From Escherichia coli O127:H6 str. E2348/69 (GTDB taxonomy: Bacteria; Pseudomonadota; Gammaproteobacteria; Enterobacterales; Enterobacteriaceae): 64,000 bases of DNA. Under the pieces are notes generated by a model, which was not told the DNA's origin, did no database searches, and saw only the letters and a list, made by a program, of their open reading frames with translations. Made by a program: the position numbers and the translations under genes. This document shows, in pieces, positions 24,171 through 49,670 of the stretch; positions within the stretch are counted from its first letter, which is position 1; every line of letters begins with the position of its first letter. The stretch lies in assembly GCF_000026545.1 (NCBI RefSeq), contig NC_011601.1; one strand, given 5' to 3'.

Positions 24171-24199
24171 ATAAACCTCCTTTACCATGAGGATTGAGA

Positions 24200-28163: not shown

Positions 28164-28173
28164 ACGTTCTCCT

Positions 28174-29394: not shown

Positions 29395-30671
29395 TTCACC
29401 TCCCCGATGCGTTCAAGCACAGATTGCACCATCTGCATTCCTGTATGACGCTCACGACTGACAGCTTCGTTAAGTCGTGCGTTCAGCGCCGGAAGCTGGC
29501 CTAAGGTATCCGCAACCATCGCTTGCAGGCTGCCGTCCAGTAAATGACGGATATCAATTGCCATCTCTGGTAGCCCCAGTTGTTGCATAATCCCGGCGGA
29601 TTTATGTTCATAGTTGATGGCAATCGCCGGAGTAGCAAAGTTCATTGAGATAATGGCTGAGTGCAGGCGCGTACCGACGGTGAGTTCACAGGCACCGAGA
29701 ATTTTGCCCATTTCCAGATCGTTGAGTTCATCCATCACCACGTGGTAACGGGCAGGATCGCTGATGTGCTGGCGCAGGTTGAGCGCCACCATGCGGTCGT
29801 CTTTGTTATAGCTGTCGATGCCCGTACAGGTGGAGAGCGCAATAACCTGATAGCCTTCGTCGAGAATGCGATTGACCACCCCGGCAAAGGCTTTTTCATA
29901 CGCTTGTTGAGTGGTGCCGAGACGTTTGTCGAACGGTGCCAGTTCGCGCAGGGTAATTGCCACCGTTTTCTGTTGTGCGGCAACGTCCAGCCAATGTTGA
30001 ACGGCATAGCTGGCGGTGAAGTCTTCTGTGTGGTGATCGACCAGCCACGCGGTATCGACGCCATGTTCCACTTTTGCGGTGGTGATATTGCTGCGTTTCA
30101 TCAAATCAAGGCTGACCGATTCGCGCAGGATCAGCGCGTCACAGTGACCAAAAACGTAGTTCGCCAGTTGGTTAAATTGCTCATCCTGGAACGGGCCGAC
30201 GCTGTGACCAATCATAAACAGCGGCTTTTTCGCCATGAAAGTGCAAAGCGCATGTTCAAACTGCGGAACGCCATAGAGATCGACAAAAAACGATCCGCCG
30301 ACCTGAATAATGGCGTCGTAACCTGACAGCAGGCGCACGAAGTCGGTGAATCCCTGGGCGATGGCGATATTACGCAGCTTGCCAGTGTCGGTGACGCGTG
30401 AGAGCAATACCTGGTGCTGATAGCGGCGACGGAGGACTTTTTTAACGCGCCCGACAACGCCCGCCGCGCTGTTGTGTTGTTTCATTTGCAGGAACAGCGG
30501 ATCGCCCATTACCGGGCGGTTGAGCAGCCAGGAAGAACTGACCGGATAGCGGCTCATCACGTCCACTTCGGCATGTGGATTGAGGATGTTGATGGCATCA
30601 AGTAAGCCGCGCAAGATGGCGCTGTCGCCACGATTGCCGCAAGTGTGGTTGCCCAGAATAAGTAATTTCAT
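29391..30671 (-). CDS. wcaK: Colanic acid pyruvyl transferase
   Basis: 426 aa; position and family match. Confidence 0.9.
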   Translation of the reverse strand: MKLLILGNHTCGNRGDSAILRGLLDAINILNPHAEVDVMSRYPVSSSWLLNRPVMGDPLFLQMKQHNSAAGVVGRVKKVLRRRYQHQVLLSRVTDTGKLRNIAIAQGFTDFVRLLSGYDAIIQVGGSFFVDLYGVPQFEHALCTFMAKKPLFMIGHSVGPFQDEQFNQLANYVFGHCDALILRESVSLDLMKRSNITTAKVEHGVDTAWLVDHHTEDFTASYAVQHWLDVAAQQKTVAITLRELAPFDKRLGTTQQAYEKAFAGVVNRILDEGYQVIALSTCTGIDSYNKDDRMVALNLRQHISDPARYHVVMDELNDLEMGKILGACELTVGTRLHSAIISMNFATPAIAINYEHKSAGIMQQLGLPEMAIDIRHLLDGSLQAMVADTLGQLPALNARLNEAVSRERHTGMQMVQSVLERIGEVK

Positions 30672-30742
30672 TTTTTCCTCATAAATTTGGTGCCAGGTGA
30701 GGTTATGTTGTTGTTTTTATTGCCGGAGCCTAAAACAACCAT

Positions 30743-32221: not shown

Positions 32222-32222
32222 A

Positions 32223-33617
32223 TCAATATGCCGCTTTGTTAACGAAGCCTTTGAATACCGTCAGGAAAACGATTTTGATATCGAACCAGACGCTCCATTC
32301 GCGGATGTACTCAAGGTCGAACTCGACGCGTTTTTCCATTTTCTCCAGTGTGTCGGTTTCGCCGCGCCAGCCGTTAATCTGCGCCCAGCCGGTAATGCCC
32401 GGTTTCACCTTATGGCGCAGCATGTAGCCTTCAATGAGCTGTCGATACTGTTCGTTATGCGCCACCGCATGCGGACGCGGACCGACAATCGACATCCCGC
32501 CAGTCAGCACATTGATAAACTGCGGCAATTCGTCCAGCGAGGTGCGGCGCAGAAAGTTCCCCACTTTGGTGACGCGCGGATCGTTCTGCGTCGCCTGAGT
32601 CACCACTTTGTCGTTCTCCATCACTTTCATGGAACGGAACTTCCACACTTTGATCGGCTTGCCATCCATGCCATAGCGAGTCTGGCGGAAAATAACCGGC
32701 CCTGGCGAACTGAGTTTCACCGCCAGCGCAATACAGCACAGCACCGGGGAGATCAGCAGCAGAATAAGCGTCGCCAGCACAATGTCTTCCGCACGTTTGA
32801 GCAGGCGGTTAACCCCGGAAAGCGGCGTGTCGTAAAGCGGCACCACCGGAACGCCGTTCATCTCTTCGAGACGTGAATGGAGAATGTTGAAGGTAAAGAC
32901 GTCGGGGATCAGCAGCACCGAACAGGTGGTGTCCGCCAGTTGATGGACCAGTTTTTTCACTCGCGCGCCGTCGCACATTTGCATCGCGATATAGACGTTA
33001 TGAATCTTGCCCGCTTTCGCATCCTCGACCAGCTGTTGCAGATTGCCCGCCCAGTCGTTAGAAACGCCACCCGGTTTCGGGTCGTGGTAAACGCCCACCA
33101 CTTCAAACCCTAACCACGGCTGATTACGGAAGCTCTCCATCAGCATTTGTCCGGCGGCTAAATCTCCCGCTACGGCGACCATACGCTTGTTATAGCCATG
33201 ATTACGCAGCCAGCCCGCCCCAATGCGAATACATGAACGGCAAACCACCAGTCCGATACTGGTCAGCCCATACCACGCCAGCCAGATTTTCAGTTGCGTG
33301 TCGAAATCATTATTGAACGCCACCAGTCCGGCGCTGAAAATCACGCTTAAGGTCCAGTTTTGTAGCAACAGGGCAAATTCTGTCGCTGCCCGAACACCGC
33401 GCCATGAGCGATAAAAATCGGTGATGCCGCCCAGCATCTGGAACACCACCAGCGTAATCAACGCCACCAACAGGTGCATGTAGAGGAATGACAGTCCGCT
33501 CACTTCGCAAACCAGCCATAGTCCGGCAAACATGATGGTGATATCTGAAAAGCGTTGCACCATAGAGATTAACGATGCATTGGTTTTCGCTCGCTCGCGC
33601 TTTTTTAGATTTGTCAT
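32223..33617 (-). CDS. wcaJ: UDP-glucose:undecaprenyl-phosphate glucose-1-phosphate transferase
   Basis: 464 aa; N-terminal TM helices and C-terminal polyisoprenyl-phosphate hexose-1-P transferase domain. Confidence 0.92.
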   Translation of the reverse strand: MTNLKKRERAKTNASLISMVQRFSDITIMFAGLWLVCEVSGLSFLYMHLLVALITLVVFQMLGGITDFYRSWRGVRAATEFALLLQNWTLSVIFSAGLVAFNNDFDTQLKIWLAWYGLTSIGLVVCRSCIRIGAGWLRNHGYNKRMVAVAGDLAAGQMLMESFRNQPWLGFEVVGVYHDPKPGGVSNDWAGNLQQLVEDAKAGKIHNVYIAMQMCDGARVKKLVHQLADTTCSVLLIPDVFTFNILHSRLEEMNGVPVVPLYDTPLSGVNRLLKRAEDIVLATLILLLISPVLCCIALAVKLSSPGPVIFRQTRYGMDGKPIKVWKFRSMKVMENDKVVTQATQNDPRVTKVGNFLRRTSLDELPQFINVLTGGMSIVGPRPHAVAHNEQYRQLIEGYMLRHKVKPGITGWAQINGWRGETDTLEKMEKRVEFDLEYIREWSVWFDIKIVFLTVFKGFVNKAAY

Positions 33618-33671
33618 CGTTGTTCCTGTTATTAGCCCCTTACCCGCAGTGGGGTAAGGGAAGATCCGACA

Positions 33672-35042
33672 TTACTCATTCAGCAACGTCAGCAGAGTTC
33701 GCGTTCGCGCTTCCATCAGCGGCACATCACCGCGCGATTCCACATTCAACCGCACCACCGGTTCGGTGTTGGAGGTGCGCAGGTTAAAGCGCCAGTCGGC
33801 AAAGGTCATGCTGATGCCATCGGTACGATCCACCGCCAGCGCCTCACGGCTAAAATGCTGTTCGACGCGATTAATCGCCTCAACGGGTTGCGCCAGTTTG
33901 CTGTTGATCTCACCGCTTGCCGGAAACGCCGCCATCCGGTCGCGCACCAGTTCGCCCAGCGTTTTTCCTTTCAGGCACAACAGTTCGGCTACCAGCAGCC
34001 ACGGGATCATGCCGCTGTCGCAGTAAGCGAAATCACGGAAGTAATGGTGAGCGCTCATTTCGCCACCGTAGATGGCGTCTTCCTTGCGCATCCGTTCTTT
34101 AATAAAGGCGTGTCCGGTTTTCGACATTACCGGGGTGCCGCCTGCGGCAGTCACCACATCAATAGTGTTCCAGGAGAGACGCGGATCATGGATGATCTTC
34201 GCGCCGGGATTTTTTTCGAGGAACGCTTCTGCCAGCAGGCCGACAATGTAGTAGCCCTCGATAAACTGCCCTTTTTCGTCAAACAGAAAACAGCGGTCAA
34301 AATCGCCATCAAAGGCAATGCCCATATCCGCGCCGTGTTTGATGACCGCATTGCGGGTGTCGTCGCGACATTCCGGCAGCAGCGGGTTAGGAATACCGTT
34401 GGGGAAATTGCCGTCCGGTGTGTTGTGTACTTTGATTAATTCCACGGGCGCGCCGAGGGCTTTAAAGCGGGCTTCGATGGCGTCCACCACCGGACCCGCT
34501 GCGCCATTCCCGGAGTTAATCACCAGCTTGAGCGGCGTGAGGTTTTTGACGTTGATATAACCGAACAGGTGATCAACGTAAGCGTCACGCAGATTAATTT
34601 TCTGATAGTGACCGCGTTTGGATTCATCAACGGGAGGGAAGTCGTTGGCTTCTGCCAGGCGCTGGACGTCGCGCAGTCCGGTATCACCGCTGATCGGGCG
34701 AGCCCCTTCGCGCACCAGCTTCATGCCATTGTAATCCATCGGATTATGGCTGGCGGTAACTTCGATGCCGCCATCCACGCCGAGATGGAACGTGGCGAAA
34801 TAGATCTCTTCGGTGCCGGACATGCCAATATCCAGCACATCGACGCCCGCATCCTGTAAACCTTTCGCCAGCGCCAGTTTTAAGGTTTCGCTGGTGAGAC
34901 GAACATCACCGCCTAACACAATGGTTTTCGGTTTGAGAAATTCGCCATAGGCGCGACCAATGCGCCAGGCAATATCTTCATTCAGTTCTTCGCCTAATTT
35001 CCCGCGAATATCATAGGCTTTAAAGCAGGTTAATTTTTTCAT
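33672..35042 (-). CDS. cpsG: Phosphomannomutase, colanic acid copy
   Basis: ATG at 35042 gives [16 protein letters not shown]...; ORF track extends upstream to 35090. Confidence 0.95.
33740..35042. repeat. manB direct repeat, copy B (cpsG, colanic acid locus)
   Basis: See copy A. Confidence 0.8.
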
Positions 35043-35132
35043 GTCGTTACCCTTTTTCAGGCAATAGTTGGCCCTGACCGAAGCGGCCAATTTTGTTTTT
35101 GTCGTTATTTACACCGCGGTTTCGCATTCATT

Positions 35133-35233
<101 letters not shown>

Positions 35234-35234
35234 T

Positions 35235-36671
35235 TTACACCCGTCCGTAGCGATCCGCGAAGCGCACCACATCATCCTCTTCGAGATAAGAGCCGGAGCG
35301 CACTTCAATTAAATCGAGCGGAATTTTCCCCGGGTTTTCCAGGCAGTGCGTCGCCCCCAGCGGAATATAAATGGACTCGTTTTCACCAAGCAGTTTGATA
35401 TCACCGTCAATAGTGACTTTTGCCGTTCCCGCAACCACTACCCAGTGTTCCGCGCGGTGATGGTGCATCTGTACTGACAAGCCTTCGCCCGGTTTCACGG
35501 TGATGCGTTTCACCTGGTAGCGGTCGCCCGCGTCGATAGAGTCATATTTGCCCCACGGACGATACACTTCGCGATGTACCCGATGCTCATGACGACCATC
35601 GGCTTTGATCTGCTCGACCACTTTTTTCACATCCTGCACCGCGTTACGGTCGGCAATCAGCACCGCATCTTTGGTCTGCACCACTACCAGATCTTTCACC
35701 CCGACGGTGGTGACCAGGCCAGATTCGGCGTATACATAGCTGTTTTCAGTTTTGTGATTAATCACATCGCCGTGGCAAACGTTGCCCTCGGCGGTGTGGG
35801 CGCTGATCTCCCATAATGAAGACCAGGAACCGACATCGCTCCAGCCCGCATCCATCGGCACCACAACGGCATCTGCCGTACGTTCCATGACCGCGTAATC
35901 CACCGACTCTTCCGGGCAGGCCAGAAACGCTTCTTCATCCACGCGAATAAAATCGAGATCCGGATCGACGGCGCTCATCGCTTTTTCACAGGCGTCGAGA
36001 ATATCCGGGCGATATTTTTTCAGTTCTTCGAGATAGCGTCCGGCGCGGAACAGGAACATGCCGCTGTTCCAGTAATATTCGCCGCTTGCCACATAGGCCT
36101 GGGCGGTTTCCAGATTCGGTTTTTCGACAAACTGCGCCACTTCAAAGGCCACCGTATCCTGCTCACCCGCAGACACTTCACCGCGACGTATATAGCCATA
36201 ACCGGTTTCTGGTAGATCCGGCACAATGCCAAAGGTCACCAGCTTGCCCGCTTCGGCATACGGCATGGCATTACGCACGGCGGCACGGAACGCGTCTTCA
36301 TCGGCAATCACATGATCCGCCGCCAATACCAGCATTAACGGGTCGCTCTCCGGGCTATGACGTTTTGCCGCCAGCGCCGCCAGTGCAATGGCAGGTGCAG
36401 TGTTACGCCCTGCCGGTTCGAGAATAATGTTCTCGGTGAGTTTGTTCAGTTGACGCAGCTGTTCCGCGACAATAAAGCGGTGCTGCTCATTGCAAATCAC
36501 CACCGGGCTTTCGCACTCCACGCCGTTCAGGCGACAGATGGTGGTTTGCAGCATGGTGAGATCGCCTTTCAGGCATAAAAACTGCTTGGGGTAAAGTACG
36601 CGGGAAAGCGGCCATAAGCGGCTACCAGAGCCACCTGCCATCACAACTGGATAGAGTTTCGACTGCGCCAT
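35235..36671 (-). CDS. cpsB: Mannose-1-phosphate guanylyltransferase, colanic acid copy
   Basis: 478 aa [23 protein letters not shown]... Confidence 0.95.
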
Positions 36672-36673
36672 AA

Positions 36674-37897
36674 TTATCCCCGAATATCATTTATAAATTG
36701 ACGTAACACGTTCTCTTTATCGAGTGTGCGTTCGGCATATTCACGTGCCACCGTGTTGTGTTTGGGCAGCAGGAGCGCCTGACGGATCCCCGCCACCAGC
36801 GCCTCGACCGATTCCGGTTCTACGCAAACCGCAATGCCCGGAAAGGTTTCGCAAAGCTGCCCCAGTTCTGTGTGGGCCTCTGCGGTAATCACCGCGTTAC
36901 CGCCTACCGCCAGAATATTGGTCAGTTTCGACGGCAATACGGCATCTGCCGCGCCGCGTTTTTGCACCACCAGATGGCAATCGCCCATCTTCAGCAGTGC
37001 GGGTAAAGCGTCATACGATTGCAGCGGGAAAAATTGCATGTTGCGCAGTCCACGCTGCTGCGCCATTTTTTCCAGCCGCGCTTTGCCGCCGCCCTGCCCG
37101 ACAATGGCAAAAATCAGCGGTTCATCGCGCAGACGATCGGCAGCTTCAATAACGTTTTCCAGCCCCTGCTTTTCACCAATATTGCCGGAGTAAAGAATGA
37201 TTTTTTTGTTATCCGGCAGGTCAAGCTGGTTACGAAGGGCGTCAACATCGGCATCTGCAACATGCTGAAAACGGGCAATTTCCGACCAGTTGGGGAAGAA
37301 GATGACGTTTTCCGCCGCCACGCCTTTTTCGATGGCTTTATTCATCATCGAACGCGAAATCGTGGAGACGTTATCGACGTTATGCAGTCCGCTACGTTCG
37401 AACGCCGTTGCCAGCTGTGCCACTTTGCCGCCTTTGCCTTTTCCGGCAAGGCCCAGCCCCAGCATGGCGTCCACTTCGTAATCCTGAATATGCAGCACGG
37501 TACGCGCACCAGAGAGCTTCGCCAGCAGGCGCATTCCCGGCGTGCAAAACAGCGTTGGCACTACGCCGATAATGCGATCCGGCTTCCAGCGACGTTGCGC
37601 CATCAGTGGAAAGAAACTGCTGACGGCAAAACTGCCGAGATGCAACAAGCGTTTCAGGGTGCTCGGCTGTTTTGGCACGTACAGCGGGCAGCGCCACACC
37701 GTGGCGGCCCCCTCTTCTCGTTTGTAGCGCCAGGCGGAATAGTTCTCACCCACCTGCCATTGCGGGTAGTAAGGCGGTGCGGTAATGACCCGCACCTCAT
37801 GACCTTGTGCCGCCAGCCATTCCACCATCTCGCCGGTGTATTTGCCGATGCCGGTTAACTCCGGCGAGTAGTTAATGCCGTAGACCAGTATTTTCAT
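36674..37897 (-). CDS. wcaI: Colanic acid glycosyltransferase (GT4)
   Basis: 407 aa. Confidence 0.9.
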
Positions 37898-38376
37898 AAT
37901 CCGGGTACTCCGGCACGCTTCTCAGCGAGAAAATAGGCGCGGCTGTTAGCGTGAACATCGTTACTGGCGAGCAGCGCGTCCGGCGTCAGCCAGCGGTAAT
38001 CGTCATGCTGCTCATCCGGCATTAACAGCTCTTCTTCCGCTACCCTGAAGCGAAAACCGAGCACCACATAGTGAGTGGTGAAATCCGTGCCGGAGAAGTT
38101 GTCGTCATAAAAGTGCTGCCAGACACCGTAAAACTGGCCTGCTGTTATCTGCAGACGCAGCCCCAGTTCCGCCATCGTCAGCCGCTCAAATGCGGCTTCC
38201 AGCGTTTCGTCTTTCTGCACGCGCCCTCCCGGCACAAACCAGTAACCCTGCGCCGGGCGGTTGGTTCTTTTGCCAAGCAGAAACTCGCCGCGACTGTTCT
38301 CGACAATAAAGTCGAGAGAGACAAGCGGAGTGGAGCGCACTACCGTGGCAAAGTCTTCCTGACGTAAAAACATCAT
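37894..38376 (-). CDS. gmm: GDP-mannose mannosyl hydrolase (Nudix), colanic copy
   Basis: 160 aa (wcaH); Nudix box present; tandem ATGs at 38376/38373. Confidence 0.93.
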
Positions 38377-39341
38377 TACCCCCGAAAGCGGTCTTGATTC
38401 TCAAGGAACCACTGGTAAGTGCTGGCAAGCCCCGCTTCCAGTGAGATTTCGTGATACCAGCCAAGCTGATGCAGGCGCGTCACATCCAGCAGTTTGCGCG
38501 GCGTACCATCCGGTTTACTGGCATCAAAAACCACCCGACCTTTGTAACCCACCACTTTGGCGATGGTTTGCGCCAGTTCACGGATGGTGCAGTCAACGCC
38601 CGTGCCGACGTTAATGTGCGACAACATCGGCTGGGTGTTTTCCAGCCAGACTTCGTGCGCCAACTCCATCACATGAATGCTTGCCGCCGCCATATCATCG
38701 ACGTGCAGAAATTCGCGCATCGGTGTACCGCTGCCCCACACCACCACGTCCGGTGCATTCTGTGCCGTCGCCTCGTGGAAGCGACGCAGCAATGCAGGTA
38801 TCACATGGGAGTTACTCGGGTGGAAGTTGTCATGCGGCCCGTACAGGTTGGTCGGCATGACTGAGCGGTAATCGCGTCCGTACTGGCGATTGTAAGATTC
38901 GCACAGTTTGATCCCGGCGATTTTGGCAATAGCATAAGGCTCGTTAGTCGGCTCCAGCGTGCCCTTCAACAGCTCGCTTTCTGCCATCGGCTGTTTTGCC
39001 AGTTTCGGGTAGATACAGGACGATCCAAGAAACAGCAGTTTGTTCACGTCGTTCTGATGCGCGGCGTGAATGATGTTGCTCTCAATCATCATGTTCTGGT
39101 AGATGAAATCCGCCGGATAGGTGTTGTTGGCAACAATGCCGCCCACTTTCGCCGCCGCCAGATAGACCTGGTCAATGCGTTCGCTGGCAAAGAAATCATG
39201 CACCGCGCGGCTGTCCAGCAGGTTCAGCTCGTCGCGGGTGCGTAATACCAGTTCCACATCACCGCGCTGTTCGAGCTGCCGCCTGATGGCAGAACCGACC
39301 ATTCCGCGATGGCCAGCGATAAAAATGCGTTGTCTACTCAT
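38376..39341 (-). CDS. fcl: GDP-L-fucose synthase, colanic copy
   Basis: 321 aa (wcaG); identical protein to the O-antigen copy. Confidence 0.95.
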
Positions 39342-39343
39342 GC

Positions 39344-40465
39344 TTATGACTCCAGCGCGATCGCCACGTCGTAGCCGTGAGATTTCAGCAGAGAGTGTTT
39401 TTTCGCCGCTTCGAGGTCATTAGCCACCATTTCAGACACCATCTCTCTGAGGGTGATTTCCGGTTTCCAGCCCAGTTTTTCGTGCGCTTTGGTCGGGTCG
39501 CCGAGCAGCGTTTCAACTTCAGCCGGACGGAAGTAACGCGGATCAACGGCGATAATCACATCACCCGGTTTAACGCCCGGCGCGTCATGCCCGGTGACGG
39601 AAACCACAATGCCCTTCTCTTCAACGCCCGTGCCTTCAAAGCGCAGTTTGATGCCCAGCTGTGCTGCCGCCATTTCCACGAACTGACGCACGGAGTACTG
39701 AACGCCGGTCGCGATAACGAAATCTTCCGGCTGTTCCTGTTGCAGCATCATCCACTGCATTTTTACGTAGTCTTTGGCATGGCCCCAGTCACGCAGGGAA
39801 TCCATATTGCCGAGGTACAGGCACGACTCCAGCCCCTGGGCGATATTGGCGATTGCGCGGGTGATTTTGCGGGTAACGAAGGTTTCGCCGCGGCGCGGGG
39901 ATTCATGGTTGAAGAGAATACCGTTACAGGCGTACATGCCGTAGGATTCGCGGTAGTTAACGGTGATCCAGTAGGCGTACAGTTTGGCGACAGCATACGG
40001 AGAGCGTGGGTAGAACGGCGTGGTTTCTTTCTGCGGAATTTCCTGCACCAGACCATACAGTTCAGAGGTGGAAGCCTGATAGAAACGGGTTTTCTTTTCC
40101 AGACCGAGGAAGCGGATCGCCTCGAGCAGGCGCAGCGTACCCATCGCATCGACGTCTGCGGTATATTCCGGTGACTCAAAAGAAACCGCAACGTGGCTCA
40201 TTGCGCCCAGGTTGTACACTTCATCCGGCTGCACTTCACGCAAAATGCGTGTCAGGTTGGAGGTATCACTCAGGTCGCCATAATGCAGATGGAATTTCGG
40301 GTTGCAGGTGTGCGGATCCTGATAAATGTGATCCACGCGCTCGGTGTTGAATGACGATGCACGACGCTTAATACCATGCACCTCGTAACCTTTTTCCAGC
40401 AGAAACTCTGCCAGGTAAGAACCGTCTTGTCCGGTTACACCGGTGATGAGAGCGACTTTTGACAT
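39344..40465 (-). CDS. gmd: GDP-mannose 4,6-dehydratase, colanic copy
   Basis: 373 aa [18 protein letters not shown]... Confidence 0.95.
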
Positions 40466-40491
40466 GTCTTATTCCTCTGTATTTTTTGAAT

Positions 40492-41040
40492 TTATTCAGT
40501 TTCAACGCGTTCGCGTATCACCACTGCGGGATTCCCCCGGCAAACCACATTTGCCGGAAGCGTTTTAAAAACACTGCTTCGTGCACCCACGACGGTGCCG
40601 TCGCCAATCGTGACGCCAGGGGCAACAAAAACATCGGTTGCCAGCCAGCATTTCTCGCCAATCACAATAGGCGTAGCATTAATGGTGAAATGTTGACTTG
40701 CATGGTCGTGGCTACCGGTGCATAAATAACTTTTTTGCGATATCACCGAATGTGCGCCAATGGTTATTTCACCGAGGGTATATAAATTGACGTCATCGCC
40801 GACCCACGCGTAATCACCTAAGGTTAATTTCCACGGATAGGTAATTTTTACTGACGGACGAATAACTACGTTTTTTCCTATTTTTGCGCCGAATAAACGT
40901 AATAAAAATGCCCGCCAGCGATACAATACTTGTGGCGACCAGGCAAATATTGTTGCCTGTACTGCCCACCATAATTGCACTTTAATAGCGTTGCCGCCCC
41001 GGAACCCTTTCGGCACCGAGAAACCGCTTAAATCTTGCAT
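40492..41040 (-). CDS. wcaF: Colanic acid acetyltransferase (hexapeptide repeat)
   Basis: 182 aa. Confidence 0.9.
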   Translation of the reverse strand: MQDLSGFSVPKGFRGGNAIKVQLWWAVQATIFAWSPQVLYRWRAFLLRLFGAKIGKNVVIRPSVKITYPWKLTLGDYAWVGDDVNLYTLGEITIGAHSVISQKSYLCTGSHDHASQHFTINATPIVIGEKCWLATDVFVAPGVTIGDGTVVGARSSVFKTLPANVVCRGNPAVVIRERVETE

Positions 41041-41055
41041 TGGTTCTCCTTATAT

Positions 41056-41802
41056 TCAGACTTTGTTATATAAGGCTTTCGTCTTTGAGGTAGTACGTTG
41101 GCGTAAATGCCAGGATAATTCAGCCCAAAAGCCAGGTACATGTAATATTTGTCGTTGGACTTTTTTCGCGTCAGCACACAATTCCATATTATTGGTGGTA
41201 GATACCCCACCCATGGAAAATTCAGACACCAGGCCATTGAGTTTTTTAAATGCATAACCGGCTTTATACATTTTGGCTGCCAGCGCGTAGTCGGAAGAAA
41301 CTTTATATTCCAGGTCATAACGCCATTTTTTCAAGCCGGATACAGGGAAAAATATCGCCTGATGACTGGCGGGCAGGCTGTGATAAATATACCAGCCCGG
41401 TTTGGCGCTACGTTTAATTTTATGCCCGTCGCCAAAATCCAGCAGCGCATCGCCGGTGATCATCATGTTATCTTTTTGCATTTTTAACTTACGGACAAAA
41501 TTTGCGGCATCCTGATGAAAAATATCGCCCGAATTGAGAAACAACGCGAACTTGCCTTGTGCCATCGCAATGCCTTTGTTCATGGCGTCGTAGATACCGT
41601 TATCTGGCTCGCTGACAAAGCGTAGGTTATAGATACCATTGAGATTTTCCAGATACTCACGGGTGCCGTCATTGGAACCGCCATCGACAACAATCCATTC
41701 GAAGCTGATATCGTCCACCTGCGCCAGATGCGCCAGCGAGGCATGTGTTTTGACTATCCCTTCGAGGTTACGAAACGCGACAGTGATTATGCTAAGCAAC
41801 AT
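41056..41802 (-). CDS. wcaE: Colanic acid glycosyltransferase (GT2)
   Basis: 248 aa. Confidence 0.9.
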
Positions 41803-41812
41803 GTTCTTATTC

Positions 41813-43030
41813 TTACCTCGTAATATTTAACGCTTTTCGCAAAATAAACGGACAGACGATTAAAAATGCATATTCCGGGCTAAATATCGAACCGGTAAAA
41901 AACAGCGATACCGGAGTAAAAAGATATAATTGCACGCGAAAATTGCGGTTATCACCAAAAGCGTTGATCATCATTTTTATCACTTTCCCCATGTACCACA
42001 GCGATAAAAACACCGCGAACCAGGAAAAATAAATAATCAGCAGATACAAACCATTGTCTATGGTTTTTCCGACATCCGCACCGTTAAATATTCCGAATGA
42101 TGCGACATATTCATAAAGTGAGCCAAATCTGACTACACCGTCAATATGGGTCAAAGAATAACCGACCATCACCAGCGGACCGACAATACGATAATACGAT
42201 GACGATCCTTCCGTACCTAAATCGCCCAGACGGGTGGAAATATAAGGAAATGCAATTACCACACCAACCAGGAATACAGCCAGAGAAATCAATGCTAACG
42301 GTAACTTTTTCTTAATCGCCTCTTTATTCAGATATTGAAATGCCCACTCCAGCAAATAAAACAGGATAAAGGTCATAACCCCTGAAAACGATCCGGATAA
42401 TATTATCCCTGCGAGAATCATAGCATCGGTTTTAGGCGTTTTGATACCAAACTGTTTGATGCTGAGCCAAATTGAGATTAATGCCAGAGCGAAAAATGCC
42501 GGTTCGAAATAAAGTGCTGTCGTGCGCTTGCCGCCGAATTTAATGAAATTCAGCACATAGCTGTTGCTGTAAATCAGATATTTAGAAATCGACTCCATAA
42601 TACTGCTGCCGCCGGTGAGGATAATTTGCGCCATCTCCACCGCCGCCAGCGCCACCACCAGCCCGACCACCAGATAAAAGAAACGTAATATCTTGCGATG
42701 GTTGTGTGGCGAAATCGTTTTAAAGCGAATACTCCACACCATGCCAATAATGATCACAATATAGACAAACAGCATGGTTGAAGTGACGTATTTACTGGCA
42801 TCCAGCGACTGACCAAACAGATAGTTAAACGCCGTGAGTCCCGCACCAATCCCTAAGGCAATCATCAATTTTTTAACGCTGATGCGTTCTAAAAACAGCA
42901 GTAACAAGACAGGTAAAAAAGTGACGATAGTGATGGGGAAACTTTCACCAAGCTGGGCGATTTTGACGTTAACCAGCAGGTAGATCAGCGGCAGCAGCAG
43001 GTAGCTACAGATTCTGATAGAAGTTGACAT
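41813..43030 (-). CDS. wcaD: Colanic acid polymerase
   Basis: Start taken at ATG 43030 ([19 protein letters not shown]...); ORF track extends to 43102; multi-TM protein. Confidence 0.88.
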
Positions 43031-44222
43031 ACTCCTCCAGCATCTGTTGTCCACTGTAGGCGGCGCGGCTGCGCTGGCTGAACCCGGCCAACGTGGTACC
43101 AAATATCGCCTGCGCGATTTCCGGTTTGCTTAATTGCACCAGTTGCAGCACCTCTTCTTCGCTGACGGTTTTACCGCCGGATTTTTGCAACACTTCCCGC
43201 GCCGCGTCGCTATGGGTGGCAATCACCGGCACGCCAATCGATAGCGCCTCACACAAAATCAGCGGGTAGTTATCGACGCGAGAACTGAACACCAGCGCAT
43301 CCATCTGATTGAGCGCGCTCATCAACTTGCGCTTGTCAGTTTCAAAGCCGTGATTAACCACGTTGCCAGCGGTGAACGGCGAGAACTTACCAAAGGTATG
43401 CAGTTCGATTTTGTCGCCCAGCGCCATCATCTCGCGCACCAGTTGCTGGTTAGTTTTGCCGTCGTAACGCAGGTCATGCGCCACCACCGCGATTTTCGGC
43501 TTACCCTGGGTTTCGCGCACCGGAGGCAAGTCCGCCAGAATCGCTTCGGTTGCCATATCAATGCCATTATTGATAATCCGGCAACGCCCTGGCCCGTACA
43601 GACTATTGAAAGCATCAGCCACATGCTGGCTGGGGGAAATAAACTGACAGCCCAGTGCCAGCATCTCGCGGAATAACTGGCGTTTGCCCGCCACCAGTTG
43701 GTGTGCGCGATCAATCTTCACCGGCGGATAGTTATTTAAGGTCGGGCATTTCTGGCAGCCTGTTTTCCAGCCTTCGCAACCGTCGGTAAAGGCGCAGCGT
43801 CCGGTAACACTCCAGTGGTCGTGCAGCGTCCAGACCAGAGTGACGTCCGGTTTATGGTTTTTCACCTTTTCGCAAAAGCGCACCACGCTCTTAAGATTTA
43901 GCCAGTAGCTGTGCAGCACATGAAAATGCAGGACCACCGGACCCGGTGTGCGAGTAATGGTGCGATATAACTCATTGAAATTGCCGAACAGATCGCGATT
44001 AAACAGACGAAACAGGGCAATGTTCGCCATCGCGGTCATCCGCGGCGTATGTTTGATGACCTGCGGATAGTTTTGATGGCTGACGCTCTCTTTGCCGCCT
44101 TTGCCGTAGCCGTAGACAAAATGTGACGCCAGCCCCTGTTGCAGCGCACGCTGGTGGAGATCTAACGCCACACCTGCCGCTCCGCCTTCCGCCAGTCGCA
44201 CATTAAATTGCAGAATATTCAT
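43005..44222 (-). CDS. wcaC: Colanic acid glycosyltransferase (GT4)
   Basis: 405 aa. Confidence 0.9.
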   Translation of the reverse strand: MNILQFNVRLAEGGAAGVALDLHQRALQQGLASHFVYGYGKGGKESVSHQNYPQVIKHTPRMTAMANIALFRLFNRDLFGNFNELYRTITRTPGPVVLHFHVLHSYWLNLKSVVRFCEKVKNHKPDVTLVWTLHDHWSVTGRCAFTDGCEGWKTGCQKCPTLNNYPPVKIDRAHQLVAGKRQLFREMLALGCQFISPSQHVADAFNSLYGPGRCRIINNGIDMATEAILADLPPVRETQGKPKIAVVAHDLRYDGKTNQQLVREMMALGDKIELHTFGKFSPFTAGNVVNHGFETDKRKLMSALNQMDALVFSSRVDNYPLILCEALSIGVPVIATHSDAAREVLQKSGGKTVSEEEVLQLVQLSKPEIAQAIFGTTLAGFSQRSRAAYSGQQMLEEYVNFYQNL

Positions 44223-44707
44223 TTAATTACCTTCACTCGCGCTTTTTCTCCCACCACCAGCGCGTTGTCCGGGACAGAGTCGAGCACCACGCTGCCCGCG
44301 CCCACGGTGACGTTGTTACCAAGCGTGATATCACCAAGAATAATGACGTTGGCACCGAGTTCGACGCCGTTGCCAATGTGTGGACATGCCATGTTATCGG
44401 CACCACGATTGCCGATAGTGACGCCGTGGCGAATGGTAAAATCATCCCCCGCAACCACGTTTTTATTGATCACTACGGCGTAACCGTGATGGATAGTAAA
44501 GCGGCGGCCAATGGTTGCGGCTGCCTGGATTTCATAACCGAAAAAGCATTCGGTGATAATGCGATACAGCACCAGCAGCGGTGCCGCCCACAGATTGTTG
44601 AGGACGTTCTTTTTGCGCCACACCGAACAAAAATGAGCAACACGATAGGCAAGAACCATGCAGCACGGGCGTAAACTCCAGCTGTTGGCGCGCAGATCTT
44701 CCAGCAT
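44219..44707 (-). CDS. wcaB: Colanic acid acetyltransferase (serine acetyltransferase-like)
   Basis: 162 aa hexapeptide-repeat protein. Confidence 0.9.
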   Translation of the reverse strand: MLEDLRANSWSLRPCCMVLAYRVAHFCSVWRKKNVLNNLWAAPLLVLYRIITECFFGYEIQAAATIGRRFTIHHGYAVVINKNVVAGDDFTIRHGVTIGNRGADNMACPHIGNGVELGANVIILGDITLGNNVTVGAGSVVLDSVPDNALVVGEKARVKVIK

Positions 44708-44709
44708 CT

Positions 44710-45549
44710 TTAGCGCCCCCGAATACCATCAGCCAGACGTTTGCCGTTACGCACCGACAGCAGCGTCAACAAGGTGCGCCAGGTCATGCGTTTATTACGG
44801 ATCTGGTAGAGGGTAAACAGCTGATATTTTTTACTGGCCCGGTCGAATTTGTCTTTGTGCTTGCGGTAAAAGTGGAAGTATCCGGAGAATTTTTTCGGTG
44901 ACGAGGTGATCTGCATTTCACCGTGATTGATATGCAGGATCTGCGTCGCTTCTTCCACTTTCCACGGTTCGCCATACTCCACCACCATCCGCAGGAAGAT
45001 GTCGTAATCCTGTGCCGCTTTCAGTTCGGTATCGAACAAACACTCTTTGAAACGCCATGCCCAGGTAAAGACCTGATTGCCAATGATATTGCGTTTATAG
45101 AACAGGCGGCGTGAGTACGGCGATTTGGGATACAGTGGTAAGCTTGCCGGTTGGGAATAAACTTCTCCCTGGCATACGTAGTCGTTAGCGTACAAAAAGG
45201 CGTGAGTGACCAGTTGCTGTTTATGGGCGAGGAAGACGCTCAGACGGTTGGGTGTCCATTCGTCATCGTCATCGATCCCGGTAATGTATTCCCCTTGCGC
45301 CAGCATAATCGCCTGGTTACGTACCGCGCACGCCCCGCTGTTAATGTCGTTGTGAATGTAGGTAATACGCGGATCGTTGAGGGCGGTAACGTACTGTTGC
45401 AGTTGTTCCCAGGAGGTGGAGCAATCATCCACGATGATCATCTCCCAGTTGCTGTAGTCCTGGCGCAAAACCGATTTTATTGCCCGAATCGCCAGTTGTT
45501 GGCGGTTCCAGGTTGGCATATAGATTGAGATCAGCGGATTGTCTTTCAT
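44710..45549 (-). CDS. wcaA: Colanic acid glycosyltransferase (GT2)
   Basis: 279 aa; DDCS/DDD motifs. Confidence 0.9.
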   Translation of the reverse strand: MKDNPLISIYMPTWNRQQLAIRAIKSVLRQDYSNWEMIIVDDCSTSWEQLQQYVTALNDPRITYIHNDINSGACAVRNQAIMLAQGEYITGIDDDDEWTPNRLSVFLAHKQQLVTHAFLYANDYVCQGEVYSQPASLPLYPKSPYSRRLFYKRNIIGNQVFTWAWRFKECLFDTELKAAQDYDIFLRMVVEYGEPWKVEEATQILHINHGEMQITSSPKKFSGYFHFYRKHKDKFDRASKKYQLFTLYQIRNKRMTWRTLLTLLSVRNGKRLADGIRGR

Positions 45550-45612
45550 AGGTTGTACTCCCGGAGTGTCGAGATGTTCTGCCGGTTTATAAGCTTGTTT
45601 ACGGGTTCTGTT

Positions 45613-45716
45613 GCCGGATGCGGCGTGAGCGCCTTATCCGGCCTACGGAGCTGGTTTGCTTGCCGGATGCGGCGTGAAGGTAGGTCGGATAAGATGCGTC
45701 AGCATCGCATCCGACA
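45613..45716. repeat. BIME / REP cluster between wcaA and wzc
   Basis: GCCGGATGCGGCGTGAGCGCCTTATCCGGCCTAC followed by a second REP GTAGGTCGGATAAGATGCGTCAGCATCGCATCCGAC. Confidence 0.8.
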
Positions 45717-45726
45717 GCGGATGTCG

Positions 45727-47889
45727 TTATTTCGCATCCGACTTATATTCGTATTCGTAATAGCCATAATCCTGATACGCGCTGGCGCGGCGGAAGATGG
45801 AGTTCAGAATCACCCCTTTCACCGGAATACCGTTTTGCTCAAAGCGGCTCAGACTGGTTTCCACTTCTTTCAATGTGTTGACCGCATAGCGCGCCACCAT
45901 TAACGTGGTTCCGACATGACGACCAACAATTGCCGCATCGGTCACTGCCAGAATCGGCGGCGTATCAATCAACACCAGGTCATAGTTTTTACTCGCCCAG
46001 TTCACCAGTTCGGCAAAGCGTTCGCTCATCAACAGTTCAGAAGGATTTGGCGGTACCTGACCGCGCGGGATCAGGTCAAATTTGGCAATAGAGGTCGGTT
46101 TAGCTGCGGTAGTAATATCGCCCTGACCAATCAGAATTTCCGACAGGCCATTAACGTTATTGGTGCCCAACAGCTCGTGGGTGTAGCCTTTGCGCATATC
46201 GCAGTCGATCAACAACACGCGTTTATTGGTCTGGCTGATCACCGCCGCCAGGTTGGCGCAGACAAAGGTTTTACCGATTGACGGGCTAACCCCGGTCATC
46301 ATCAACACATTGTTCTGCGCCTGCATCATCGCGAAGTGCAGACTGGTACGCAGACTGCGGATGGCTTCAATCGCCAGATCGGTTGGATTCCCCACCGCCA
46401 GTAGCTGGCTCTGTTTATAGCGTTTAACTCCTTTGATGGTTTTGACGCTATCGCGCGCTTTCTGCCATTCCGACAACGGGATGCTGGCATAGACGCTGAT
46501 ACCTTGTTCTTCCAGCACCTGCGGGCTTTCGATGCCGCGATTAAACAACGAGCGCAGCAGCACACCCACGATAGAGAGCATCAGGCCGAGGATAATCGCC
46601 CCAAGGATAATCAGCCCTTTCTTCGGTTTTAGCACGCCAGGCTGGGTGATTGCCGGGTCAACAATGCGCACATCGCCGACGGTGCTGGCTTCGGTGATTT
46701 TCAGCTCCTGCTCTTTATTCAGCAGTTGCATATAGACCTGCTGACCAGACTCGACATCGCGGGTCAGACGGACAATTTCCTGCTGGGTTTTCGGCATCGC
46801 CGTTACGCGACCATTAAGTTTGGCTTTTTCGTCTTCCAGCGCCTGCCGTTTCTCCAGCAGCGTGCGGTACGCCGGGTGAACTTTGGTGTACAGCTTGGAG
46901 ATTTCCGCCTCTTTAAAGGTCAGTTCGTTCAACTGGGCGTCGATGTTCACCATCGAATCGAGCACCGCTTTCGCTTCCAGCGGCAGATCAACAGAATCTT
47001 TATCCTGACGGAAGGCATTCAGTTTGTTTTCGGCAACATCGAGGCGGCTACGTACTTCCGGTAACTGTTGCGCGAGGAAAGCGAGACTTTTCGACGCTTC
47101 CGCCGATTTGCGCTCAATATTTTGTTCCTGATAGTTACGGGCGATGCTGTTAAGAATGTCGCGGATCTGTTCGCGATCTTCACCGGTATAAGTCAGGCTC
47201 AGTACGCCTGCGTCTTTGCCGTTCTCCGTTACCGTCAGGCTGTTTTGCAGTTGATTGATCATCCCCAGCGTGGAGTATTTGGTGACGGTAAACTCACTGC
47301 CCGGGCGGGCGTGAATGGCTTCAACCATCAGCGTGACGCCTTCTTTTTTCAGCATCTGGCCCGCTTGCCCACGGGCGCTAAAGCCGCCATCACTGCTCAG
47401 GGTGTAGTTTTTATCGTCCAGCACATTAAGCGTAAACACCTGATCCGCCATCTCTTTCGGGCGGTTAAAGGTGGTCACTTTCACCGTTTCGTTCTGACGT
47501 CCCATCAGGCGATCCCAGCCCGCACCGAAAATCGGGAACGTGTTTTTGCTCACCGCAATATCGAGGTCGAGATCGTCCACCGTTTTACCAAGCACCAGGC
47601 GCGAACGAATCAACTGGATCTCGGCGTCCGATGCAGGCGGTTTGTTGGCTAACGCCGATCCGATATCCTGCACTAACGAATTGCCGCTGCTTTGCTCGAT
47701 TTGTACCAGTGCGTCGGCACTATAAATCGGCGTGGCGAAGAAGGTGTAAACCACGGCACAAAGGGCGAATACAGCGGTGATGCCAATCACCCACCAGCGC
47801 GCTTCAATGACGGTGCCGACCAGGCGACCAATATCGATTTCATCACTGCCCGTTACCGGAGCGGCATGTTGTTTTACTTTTTCTGTCAT
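45727..47889 (-). CDS. wzc: Tyrosine autokinase of capsule export (BY-kinase)
   Basis: ATG at 47889 gives MTEKVKQHAAPVTGSDEIDIGRLVG...; Walker A GVSPSIGKT; C-terminal Tyr cluster YQDYGYYEYEYKSDAK; ORF track extends to 47925. Confidence 0.95.
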   Translation of the reverse strand: MTEKVKQHAAPVTGSDEIDIGRLVGTVIEARWWVIGITAVFALCAVVYTFFATPIYSADALVQIEQSSGNSLVQDIGSALANKPPASDAEIQLIRSRLVLGKTVDDLDLDIAVSKNTFPIFGAGWDRLMGRQNETVKVTTFNRPKEMADQVFTLNVLDDKNYTLSSDGGFSARGQAGQMLKKEGVTLMVEAIHARPGSEFTVTKYSTLGMINQLQNSLTVTENGKDAGVLSLTYTGEDREQIRDILNSIARNYQEQNIERKSAEASKSLAFLAQQLPEVRSRLDVAENKLNAFRQDKDSVDLPLEAKAVLDSMVNIDAQLNELTFKEAEISKLYTKVHPAYRTLLEKRQALEDEKAKLNGRVTAMPKTQQEIVRLTRDVESGQQVYMQLLNKEQELKITEASTVGDVRIVDPAITQPGVLKPKKGLIILGAIILGLMLSIVGVLLRSLFNRGIESPQVLEEQGISVYASIPLSEWQKARDSVKTIKGVKRYKQSQLLAVGNPTDLAIEAIRSLRTSLHFAMMQAQNNVLMMTGVSPSIGKTFVCANLAAVISQTNKRVLLIDCDMRKGYTHELLGTNNVNGLSEILIGQGDITTAAKPTSIAKFDLIPRGQVPPNPSELLMSERFAELVNWASKNYDLVLIDTPPILAVTDAAIVGRHVGTTLMVARYAVNTLKEVETSLSRFEQNGIPVKGVILNSIFRRASAYQDYGYYEYEYKSDAK

Positions 47890-47891
47890 TC

Positions 47892-48335
47892 TTATACCTG
47901 CTCTGCGTTCAATGCCTGCGCCCACTGGCGGGCAGACCGTTCAAGTAATGTGTACACCGCTGCAAACGTTTCCCGGCTTTTGCGATACGGATCGGGGATT
48001 TCACATTCGTTATCCCAGTGACCAAACAGCATCACTTTGCCGCGCATCTCAGGTGCCATCTCGCATAAGCGTTCGATATGGCGCTTTTCCATGGTCAAAA
48101 TCAGGTCATAGTTGCGACACAGGCGGCGGCTGATTTGCCGTGCACAGTGACCTTCCAGAGACAGTTGATGTTCTGCGGCGACGCTGATAGCGGTAGGATC
48201 AGCGCCCTTACCGACCAGCGCGCCGAGTCCAGCGGACTCCACTTTCAGTTCCGGGTGATAACGTTGCAGTAAGCGTTCCGCCGTCGGGGAACGGCAAATA
48301 TTGCCGACACAGACAACTAAGATGTTGTTAAACAT
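47892..48335 (-). CDS. wzb: Low-molecular-weight protein-tyrosine phosphatase
   Basis: 147 aa; CVGNICRSP P-loop. Confidence 0.95.
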   Translation of the reverse strand: MFNNILVVCVGNICRSPTAERLLQRYHPELKVESAGLGALVGKGADPTAISVAAEHQLSLEGHCARQISRRLCRNYDLILTMEKRHIERLCEMAPEMRGKVMLFGHWDNECEIPDPYRKSRETFAAVYTLLERSARQWAQALNAEQV

Positions 48336-48340
48336 GACGA

Positions 48341-49480
48341 TTACCAGTTATGAATGTCGCTGGCTGTATCCGTCATGTAACGGACACCGCTAATAGTTGG
48401 CAGCAACTGATTGATCAGACGGTTCCAGCGGGAAACCGGGGCGGTGGTGACATACACCACGTCATAAGGTTGCAGGCGGAATTCTGTCGCCATCACCAGC
48501 GACGTCGCATCGGACATATCCAGCTGGTAGATATTGGCAATCTTGCCGTTACGCCCGCCCTCGCCTTTCAGCGGACGAATGACAAAGATGCCGCTGGCGT
48601 TGGAGGTGGTCATGTCGATACCTTCAGCATTACCCAGGGCTTCAGTCAGGGTCATGCCGCTAAAGTCCATTTTCAGGGTGCTCTGTTTCTTCACTTCACC
48701 CATCACAAACACTTTCAGATCATCATTACGCGGCACGTAGAGAATATCGCCGGGGTAAAGCAGTCGGTTCTGATTGAGGTCGCCGTTTTGCATCAGCGCC
48801 TGCAAAGAAATGCGTTCTTCACGACCATTGTGTGTTAGCACCACGTTGCGCCAGTCAGCGGTGTCGGTCAGGCCACCTGCGGCGTTGATGGCGTCGAGAA
48901 TGGTCAGTGGTACGTTGGTGATCGCCTGTTGACCGGATTTATTCACCTGACCGGAGATATAGGCTTTTTGTGAGCGGAAGGCGGCGATATTAACGTCCAC
49001 CTGCGGGTCAGCGATGTACGTCGCTAAGCGCCCGGTAATATCACTGCGGATTTCAGCGAGCGTTTTCCCGACTACGTGAACCTTGCCGATATACGGGTAA
49101 AACATAGTGCCGTCAGGCTGTACCCAGTTGCCGGTGTCGCTGGAGCTGCGGTACTGACCGGCTGGCGTGGTGAGTTCCGGGTGATCCCAGACGGTGACAT
49201 TAAGAACGTCCCCCGGCCCGACGCGATACTGGTAATTCGCGATCTCACTTTCCAACGTCATATTGGGGCGCGCTACATTCGGGCGTGGGCGTAATTGGTC
49301 AATCAGGCGCGGGGTCAGCGGATAAACATTCACCATTTTGTCGAGATCGAAATCAGCGTCCTGCTGTTTGATGACGTCTTTGCCCATCGTCGACATATTG
49401 CTGCCCGGAAGTACTGTGCAACCGCTTATCAAGGTTACTGACACCAATAATGGCATCAATTTCATTTTGGATTTCATCAT
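48341..49480 (-). CDS. wza: Outer-membrane polysaccharide export lipoprotein
   Basis: 379 aa; lipoprotein signal with LISGC lipobox. Confidence 0.95.
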
Positions 49481-49658
49481 TGTTTATTTATCACTTTGGC
49501 AGAGTAATTATCCTGTGCACTATTAATAGCAATGTCGCCATGCACATTTACCTTGCAGTTAATTGAATAAAAATTTAACTGGCATCAGTCCTAAAAAAAT
49601 TGATTTCATCCGCAGGCTATTGACAGAATAATTCAGACTGGTCTTTCAGGCATCCAGA

Positions 49659-49670
49659 CACGCTACCGCC
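49659..49670 (-). promoter_or_regulatory. ops element in the colanic acid (cps) operon leader
   Basis: Plus-strand CACGCTACCGCC is the reverse complement of GGCGGTAGCGTG; about 180 nt upstream of the wza start on the transcribed strand. Confidence 0.8.

Follow-up and report, generated by a model that had tools for sequence, protein, structure and literature searches.

Recruitment of RfaH requires an RNA polymerase that is transcribing through an ops element, and RfaH reportedly reads this element as non-template DNA. RfaH is further said to replace NusG on the polymerase, to suppress pausing and Rho-dependent termination, and to be able to couple a ribosome via S10. A K92 study is also said to have dealt with the control of colanic acid by RfaH. 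The non-template strand also carries ops in the leaders of waaQ (rfaQ), hly and kps, at 27 to 817 nt from the start site, and RfaH ChIP signal is found there from ops onward, as at wza; hly and kps possess variant ops sequences (GCATG, GCATA), and the waaQ leader additionally yields RirA, an RfaH-interacting RNA. Group 1 capsule loci (K30 of E. coli E69, Klebsiella K loci) carry a JUMPstart element before a wza-wzb-wzc block that is followed by serotype genes. Their JUMPstart is situated after galF and before wzi and their expression is constitutive, whereas the one described here follows an Rcs-dependent promoter next to yegH. A stem-loop after wzc reportedly attenuates transcription in a group 1 cluster, with RfaH aiding read-through.

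For colanic acid, a JUMPstart/ops before wza is already known; it has been described for the K-12 cps (wza-wca) operon (Hobbs & Reeves 1994; Stout 1996; Stevenson et al. 1996) and belongs to any E. coli that is colanic-acid-proficient. The wza promoter itself is activated by the Rcs phosphorelay by way of RcsB and RcsA. Transcription downstream of wzc requires RfaH (PMC3673037), and wca transcription is attributed to JUMPStart-RfaH antitermination (PMC9976346, citing Stout 1996 and Hobbs & Reeves 1994). The most detailed data come from CFT073 (PMC9765446, Hustmyer et al. 2022), where Data set S2 lists the wza ops GGCGGTAGCGTG at 2424966-2424955, at -190 and on the non-template strand of the UTR. 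In an hns stpA mutant of CFT073, RfaH ChIP-seq signal extends from wza to wcaL, and it is absent in an rfaH mutant; the hns stpA peak at 2385426-2425127 spans the colanic-acid and the O-antigen operons as one RfaH-occupied tract of 39.7 kb. A sigma-70 peak is located upstream of wza in derepressed CFT073, and the yegH-wza spacer is bound by H-NS. Wild-type wza falls into class I (no polymerase), whereas the CFT073 O-antigen operon is transcribed and RfaH-bound in the wild type, and wza-wcaM is termed a cryptic RfaH-regulated locus in need of an initiation signal. What was measured at wza is recruitment rather than an effect on elongation, and Data set S3 lists neither a wza start nor a traveling ratio. 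The identical 12-mer occurs at the RfaH-bound CFT073 sites of wzx, rfaQ, tssH and c4518, and one exact ops within ushA is without RfaH binding (PMC9765446).

The DNA analysed here, hereafter the window, is a stretch of 64,000 nucleotides from the EPEC strain E. coli O127:H6 str. E2348/69 (NC_011601.1), with gene names taken from the RefSeq annotation of an identical strain and from O127:H6 records. Its minus strand carries, after the divergent yegH, the colanic acid operon wza-wcaM, gne/galE, galF, a second JUMPstart, the O127 O-antigen genes, gnd, ugd, wzzB and the his operon. The GC content is approximately 54% in the wca operon, 29-36% in the O127-specific genes and 35% in the yegH-wza spacer. 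The coordinates of the features are compiled in Table 1.

Table 1. Features of the wza region and of related parts of the window (position 1 is the first letter of the window).
Feature	Position	Strand	Remarks
ops element GGCGGTAGCGTG, predicted RfaH recruitment and pause site	49659..49670	minus	exact match
JUMPstart element, 3' end formed by ops	49659..49697	minus	39 nt; Rfam RF01707
wza ORF	48341..49480	minus	379 codons; ATG at 49480; intact
Leader from ops to the wza start codon	49481..49658	minus	178 nt
Possible upstream ORF (MPVKFLFN*)	49585..49559	minus	8 codons
wza-wzb-wzc-wcaA..F-gmd-fcl-gmm-wcaI-manC-cpsG-wcaJ-wzxC-wcaK-wcaL-wcaM	26769..49480	minus	~22.7 kb, ORF list
wzc-wcaA spacer, REP/BIME-type palindromes	45550..45726	minus	177 nt
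Second JUMPstart/ops	24208..24246	minus	RF01707, 52.5 bits, E 3.8e-9; full match
Candidate sigma-70 promoter TTGTTA(49864-49859)-17-TTAGCT(49841-49836)	in conserved block 49822..49865	minus	predicted start ~49829
Candidate sigma-70 promoter TTGCCT(49856-49851)-17-AACACT(49833-49828), TG-preceded	in conserved block 49822..49865	minus	predicted start ~49821
Best E. coli consensus promoter match TTGGAG-17-CATAAT	49786..49814	minus	predicted start ~49779
RcsAB-like box D (near-palindrome), minus TAATATAATTCTTA, plus TAAGAATTATATTA	49884..49897	minus	10/14 vs TaAGaatatTCctA, either orientation
RcsAB-like box C TAAAGAAACTCCTA, then AAAA	49919..49932	minus	10/14 matches
RcsAB-like box B TAAGAAATATCGCA	49964..49977	minus	9/14 matches, 6/6 invariant positions

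The minus strand upstream of wza reads ...CAGTGTATTGGTAGCTAAAAAGCCAGGGGCGGTAGCGTG..., in which GGCGGTAGCGTG runs from 49670 down to 49659 and matches the 12-nt ops consensus GGCGGTAGnnTG exactly. Counted from the A of the wza ATG, the element extends from 190 nt (5' G) to 179 nt (3' G) upstream. The earlier note had placed the 12-mer on the transcribed strand, some 180 nt ahead of wza, which agrees with this distance of 179-190 nt and with the orientation, as the element is on the sense (non-template) strand of wza that ops function needs. As single-stranded DNA, GGCGGTAGCGTG is predicted to form a small hairpin of the GCG/CGC type. Searching the complete window for Rfam families with their gathering thresholds (35 bits for RF01707) returned four matches, two of which are full-length JUMPstart elements with the ops 12-mers as their 3' ends; the wza copy scores 57.3 bits (E 1.6e-10) and covers model positions 1-38 of 38. 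Of 5426 complete E. coli genomes, 4817 contain the 81-mer centred on the wza JUMPstart/ops; the site carries no annotated feature in any of the E. coli records listed, nor in RefSeq. RfaH itself is presumably encoded by the E2348/69 genome outside the window, given that rfaH was found in 5425 of the 5426 complete E. coli genomes.

Short motifs recur, and the exact but RfaH-free ops in CFT073 ushA illustrates that a functionless chance occurrence of the 12-mer is conceivable. For the wza copy such an origin has next to no probability and was excluded. The window contains two exact copies of GGCGGTAGCGTG (49659-49670 and 24208-24219, both on the minus strand), against a chance expectation of 0.02 per window and with none of 100 dinucleotide-preserving shuffles reaching two. 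Furthermore, the wza copy is part of a full JUMPstart, is located on the correct strand of an operon leader, is conserved across genera and has an RfaH-bound counterpart in CFT073. With two mismatches allowed, the search yields 10 sites where 4.9 are expected, and the motif is no longer special.

Within E. coli, the 660-bp yegH-wza spacer aligns without indels to those of K-12 MG1655 and CFT073 (reference coordinates of NC_004431.1). The stretch from JUMPstart to the wza ATG is 100% identical among the window, K-12 and CFT073, and the CFT073 ops is likewise at -190; the roughly one dozen substitutions that distinguish the K-12 cps and CFT073 wza leaders from the window all lie upstream of JUMPstart. 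A further difference is the wza gene itself, which is frameshifted in CFT073 and intact here. Because the leader is identical to the one with RfaH ChIP signal in CFT073, the window ops is identified as a known RfaH site, and judged by this identity 49659-49670 is the already described RfaH loading site of the cps/wca operon, as in K-12 cps. The claim of a second ops element in the colanic acid operon leader is thereby borne out, by the full JUMPstart match as well as by the ChIP-bound counterpart; RfaH loading and the membership of ops in the transcript are taken from CFT073 ChIP and promoter prediction rather than from E2348/69 itself. Very probably, ops at the 3' end of JUMPstart is situated in an untranslated leader of approximately 300-350 nt of wza-wcaM and serves RfaH antitermination of this operon.

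Outside E. coli, a scan with a JUMPstart pattern (one genome per species) provided 105 loci, in 11 of which wza is located downstream. These 11 wza leaders belong to Escherichia, Salmonella enterica subsp. diarizonae and several Citrobacter species. The retrieval pattern demanded an exact match at 25 of the 39 positions of JUMPstart, and the 95% invariance that the element shows in this set is therefore largely by construction; the independent information consists in the matches at the same wza distance in other genera and in the behaviour of the flanks. In the Salmonella and Citrobacter species, JUMPstart is found at the same distance from wza as in the window. An nhmmer profile of the promoter region detected no further homologues among the 105 JUMPstart loci. 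Across eight sequences from these three genera, 72.5% of the leader columns between ops and wza are invariant, which is close to the figure for codon positions 1+2 of wza (71.8%) and far above those for the third codon positions (29%) and the variable stretch 49705-49821 (15%).

This conservation downstream of ops, far beyond that of neutral sequence, also bears on a different reading, according to which JUMPstart works at the RNA level, either entirely or in addition, as a leader hairpin or as a processed RNA that titrates RfaH in the manner described for RirA, the RfaH-interacting RNA from the waaQ leader. The Rfam class is indeed a cis-regulatory RNA with a 5-bp stem that the wza copy can form. 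We regard an RNA role as very improbable, as ops is established to be read as non-template DNA (Artsimovitch & Landick 2002) and RNAalifold on the 11 leaders found no compensatory change (covariation term +0.26), with the stem positions themselves fixed by the retrieval pattern. Reading of ops by RfaH from the non-template DNA strand is the preferred explanation.

The leader sequence immediately before the wza ATG is GTGATAAATAAACA, without a canonical Shine-Dalgarno sequence, as a review likewise states for the operons of waaQ and rfb. Apart from one possible uORF, no ORF lies between ops and the wza ATG. The uORF has 8 codons, MPVKFLFN* (ATG CCA GTT AAA TTT TTA TTC AAT TAA), with AGGA 3 nt upstream of it. 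All 11 leaders preserve its start, frame and stop, and 10 of them encode the identical peptide; the changes TTT>TTC, TTA>CTT and TAA>TAG are synonymous or stop-preserving, and Salmonella has three replacements. A longer leader ORF starting at ATGTGCATGG was rejected, its frame being conserved in neither Salmonella nor Citrobacter. The uORF overlaps a conserved CAGTTAA/TTAACTG inverted repeat, and structure and coding in the leader are therefore inseparable with the present data. It is conceivable, if unlikely, that the leader is more than a spacer, in that the uORF or hairpin may provide the first ribosome contact with the RfaH-modified polymerase or a decision point for translation, Rho or a small RNA. 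The uORF/hairpin would then constitute a second checkpoint after RfaH loading, of a kind that to our knowledge has not been described for the cps operon.

All three candidate promoters in the yegH-wza spacer lie upstream of ops, which would be located 109-159 nt into the predicted transcripts. Two of them overlap within the block 49822-49865, which is conserved in Escherichia, Salmonella and Citrobacter (57% invariant columns) and, as far as sequence can tell, may hold two overlapping promoters. The third, TTGGAG-17-CATAAT, is the sole promoter-like match of the spacer scan and has the same sequence in K-12 and CFT073; its lack of conservation in Salmonella and Citrobacter is the reason why it was not accepted as a certain promoter. 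Given the CFT073 ChIP data and these predictions, it is very unlikely that all wza transcripts start downstream of 49659. No intrinsic terminator was detected by a scan of the wza leader, and matches inside the operon are no more numerous than in shuffles.

Further upstream, the earlier note had pointed to a near-palindrome at about 49882-49900 as a potential RcsAB box. The near-palindrome exists with a shift of one base (box D), is conserved and is a plausible RcsAB box; it is, however, only one of three similar RcsAB-like boxes. Compared with the consensus TaAGaatatTCctA, as given in a figure legend of PMC4325325, box D agrees at five of the six invariant positions, whichever way it is read. 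Conservation across Escherichia, Salmonella and Citrobacter extends to all three boxes and is seen in the right half TCCTAAAA of box C and in ATTTA[A/G]GAAATATCGCA of box B. The strict RcsB homodimer pattern TN(G/A)GAN4TC(T/C)NA has no match in the spacer. Equally good matches to the RcsAB consensus turn up in 23% of shuffles of the AT-rich spacer (P about 0.2) and are not enriched in the spacer itself, and the consensus score was consequently rejected as evidence; the case for RcsAB boxes rests on conservation.

The rcsA promoter offers a described operator for comparison, in which a pair of RcsA/B boxes is located some 170 bp ahead of the start and box1 overlaps TGAATTGCCATTAATATA (PMC11879457). 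The K-12 rcsA promoter comprises a box1 region TGAATTGCCATTAATATAATTCCGT and, 34 bp later, a box2 candidate TAAGGATTATCCGAAAAA. Box D shares the exact 12-mer TTAATATAATTC with the rcsA box1 region (46 of 1000 shuffles reach a shared 12-mer), box C resembles the box2 candidate, and boxes C and D are 35 bp apart. Both pairs of RcsAB-like boxes are situated far upstream of the start in AT-rich, H-NS-bound DNA and have the right half TCC[T/G]AAAA in common. They differ in the order of the box types, which is inverted at wza, and in the third box (B) at wza. In our reading, wza may thus possess a two-box, possibly three-box, RcsAB operator that includes box D.

For a wza box, binding of RcsA-RcsB and a loss of induction upon mutation have reportedly been demonstrated; this published and mutated box may be the TAAAGAAACTCCTA site. 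Box D may not be the operative RcsAB box, the functional one being TAAAGAAACTCCTA (49919-49932) or TAAGAAATATCGCA (49964-49977) and box D serving, for example, as an UP-like or H-NS site. This is a considerable possibility, somewhat below an even chance: the three 14-mers are alike at 9-10 of 14 positions and only box B meets all six invariant positions, besides the frequency of such matches in shuffled spacers and the presumed identity of the published box. On the other hand, box D is conserved in the three genera and contains the exact 12-mer of the rcsA box1 region, where RcsA/B binds; with two boxes in the rcsA operator and a like spacing of C and D, both may be used.

Taken with the leader, these elements suggest the following course, for which we infer where exactly transcription starts, how strongly RfaH affects colanic-acid output in E2348/69, the barriers overcome and the RcsAB-binding boxes. 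Initiation would be a separate step, with the AT-rich (35% GC) promoter region silenced by H-NS and RcsB together with RcsA activating the promoter via RcsAB boxes 60-190 bp upstream of the start. The polymerase would then transcribe 109-159 nt and pause at ops, where the ops bases of the exposed non-template strand would fold into the small hairpin that the N-terminal domain of RfaH reads. RfaH would open and, instead of NusG, clamp the polymerase; once refolded, its C-terminal domain could bind S10. The modified complex would resist pausing, Rho-dependent termination and barriers such as the REP cluster after wzc, so that the distal genes are expressed. Local features that fit this course are the 22.7-kb length of the operon, the wza start without canonical Shine-Dalgarno sequence and the REP cluster after wzc. 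The role of the element would be that, after the Rcs envelope-stress pathway has fired the wza promoter, the polymerase reaches the far end of the 22.7-kb operon, including the GDP-fucose genes.

The wzc-wcaA spacer, which harbours the REP cluster, folds as RNA with -65.4 kcal/mol (z = -5.45), and none of 200 shuffles folds as well. Its position is the one where the literature puts the RfaH requirement, namely downstream of wzc (PMC3673037), and it is analogous to the stem-loop mentioned above for the group 1 cluster. The REP cluster is likely to be an internal polarity point for the RfaH-modified polymerase, the link to RfaH being one that we infer.

Alternatively, JUMPstart/ops could be genuine and conserved and yet largely dispensable, with Rcs-dependent initiation determining nearly all of the colanic-acid output. 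In the wild type the operon is silent, and RfaH binds it only once H-NS/StpA are removed (CFT073), no traveling ratio or expression effect is given for wza in PMC9765446, and the GC content of wca is an ordinary ~54% compared with 29-36% in the O127-specific genes. Dispensability is nevertheless quite improbable in view of a JUMPstart kept at equal wza distance in three genera, an adjacent leader with 72.5% invariant columns as opposed to 15-29% for neutral proxies, the published RfaH requirement beyond wzc together with the cited K92 study on RfaH and colanic acid (Navasa 2014), and an operon of 22.7 kb that includes a strongly structured REP cluster. A contribution of RfaH to the expression of the distal genes is the reading that we prefer.

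The second JUMPstart/ops of the window precedes the first O127 O-antigen gene (ATG at 24170) by 37 nt. It has in common with the wza copy the identical 12-mer, the full Rfam match and the location on the sense strand of a long polysaccharide operon. In the O-antigen operon, the 37 nt lead to a start codon with a strong AAGGAGG Shine-Dalgarno sequence, whereas at wza 178 nt separate ops from a start codon without a canonical one; the O-antigen operon body is AT-rich (29-36% GC), and its CFT073 counterpart is active in the wild type, in contrast to the silent wza. That both polysaccharide operons share an RfaH logic, as had been proposed for the window, holds for JUMPstart/ops on the sense strand of each and for the CFT073 RfaH tract over both. 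It is the elongation logic that is common to both operons and not the initiation logic, the wza promoter being silent without Rcs activation or H-NS relief. Counter-silencing of H-NS by RfaH was shown for AT-rich operons; with ~54% GC, wca may depend on it less, and it is probably of greater weight for the O-antigen operon.

The GDP-fucose genes had also been noted as duplicated in the two operons, and gmd-fcl copies are indeed located at 19550-22095 and 37926-40471, including a run of 1,513 bp with perfect identity. The copies constitute a 2.5-kb direct repeat, 18,376 bp apart. The window has matches at 100% in NZ_CP059840.2, NZ_LT827011.1 and NZ_LT903847.1. NZ_CP059840.2 (RefSeq E2348/69) is 100% identical on both sides and lacks exactly 18,376 bp, with the crossover inside gmd; the genome is without wcaI to wcaM, galF, the JUMPstart of the O-antigen operon and the first two O127 genes, and its remaining O127 genes are placed behind the wza leader. 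This gap is either a genuine deletion that arose in the laboratory or a collapse during assembly; the full region is retained in other O127:H6 assemblies.

The leader separating ops from wza is invariant in 72.5% of its columns across Escherichia, Salmonella and Citrobacter. Within wza, codon positions one and two are conserved to the same degree, against 29% for position three. Covariation support for an RNA fold of this leader was looked for and not found. The leader contains a candidate upstream open reading frame (uORF) of eight codons, MPVKFLFN*, whose start, frame and stop are preserved in all 11 wza leaders compared. Changes within it are exclusively synonymous or stop-preserving in Escherichia and Citrobacter, with three replacements in Salmonella. 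The candidate uORF overlaps a CAGTTAA...TTAACTG inverted repeat, which is itself conserved.

The two RfaH-dependent leaders of the window are differently built. The first O-antigen gene possesses a strong AAGGAGG Shine-Dalgarno sequence and lies just 37 nt from ops, whereas wza is 178 nt from its own ops and lacks a canonical Shine-Dalgarno sequence. Further upstream lies TTGGAG-17-CATAAT, the sequence that best fits the sigma-70 consensus ahead of wza in E. coli, but Salmonella and Citrobacter do not share it. Conservation in these two genera is found instead in a block just upstream of it, TTGTTACCTTGCCTG...GTTAGCTGnAACA, which may be the true core promoter of wza rather than the consensus match.

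Features of the window by position.
Feature	Position	Strand	Remarks
Direct repeat, gmd-fcl-gmm', O127 and colanic-acid copies	19550-22095 and 37926-40471		2.5 kb each
O-antigen leader	24170-24246	-	
algC RNA motif (Rfam RF02929)	35047-35096	-	full-length, 77.3 bits; between manC (cpsB) and cpsG, colanic-acid operon
wzc-wcaA spacer	45550-45726	-	cluster of REP/BIME-type palindromes (GCCGCATCCGGCA..., GCCGGATAAGGCG...)
ops-to-wza leader	49481-49658	-	
Candidate uORF MPVKFLFN*	49559-49585	-	8 codons; AGGA 3 nt upstream
TTGGAG-17-CATAAT	49786-49814	-	top sigma-70 match upstream of wza
WP_162829205.1	49789-49938	+	49-aa 'hypothetical protein', RefSeq (PGAP)
Conserved block	49822-49865	-	
CRP-like palindrome, TGTGA-N6-TCAnA	50099-50114	+	TGTGACATTTGTCATA; 25-40 nt upstream of yegH start (50139)

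On the strand opposite wza, the CRP-like palindrome falls within a block conserved across all three genera. The open reading frame of WP_162829205.1, annotated in E2348/69, CFT073 and many further genomes, spans the wza promoter and the RcsAB-like boxes, and probably represents regulatory DNA mistaken for a gene.

Inside the colanic-acid operon, the wzc-wcaA spacer has a predicted RNA fold of -65.4 kcal/mol (z -5.45), and its REP/BIME cluster is therefore likely an internal attenuation or mRNA-stability point. The O127 manC-manB pair, in contrast to the colanic-acid manC (cpsB)-cpsG pair, has no spacer like the one carrying the algC motif.

The gmd-fcl-gmm' copies of the two operons lie 18,376 bp apart, with perfect identity over 1,513 bp. 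Exactly these 18,376 bp are missing from NZ_CP059840.2, one RefSeq assembly of E2348/69, with the crossover within gmd. As a consequence, wcaI-wcaM, galF, the O-antigen JUMPstart/ops and the first two O127 genes are gone from this assembly, and the remaining O127 genes come to lie downstream of the wza leader. The absence is either a real deletion or an assembly collapse.

In CFT073 (NC_004431.1 2423638-2424776), the strain of the RfaH ChIP study, wza is annotated as frameshifted, and the resequencing of that study reports indels in wza and wzb (PMC9765446); the RfaH-bound operon of this strain is partly decayed. Exact JUMPstart matches also occur on contigs labelled Arthrobacter, Bacillus, Chryseobacterium, Flavobacterium, Lachnospiraceae, Peptococcaceae, Erysipelotrichia and Tenericutes (scan loci L013, L018, L027, L068, L069, L070, L075 and L076). 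As these are mostly short contigs or MAGs, the matches most likely stem from public assemblies that are mis-binned or contaminated with enterobacterial DNA.
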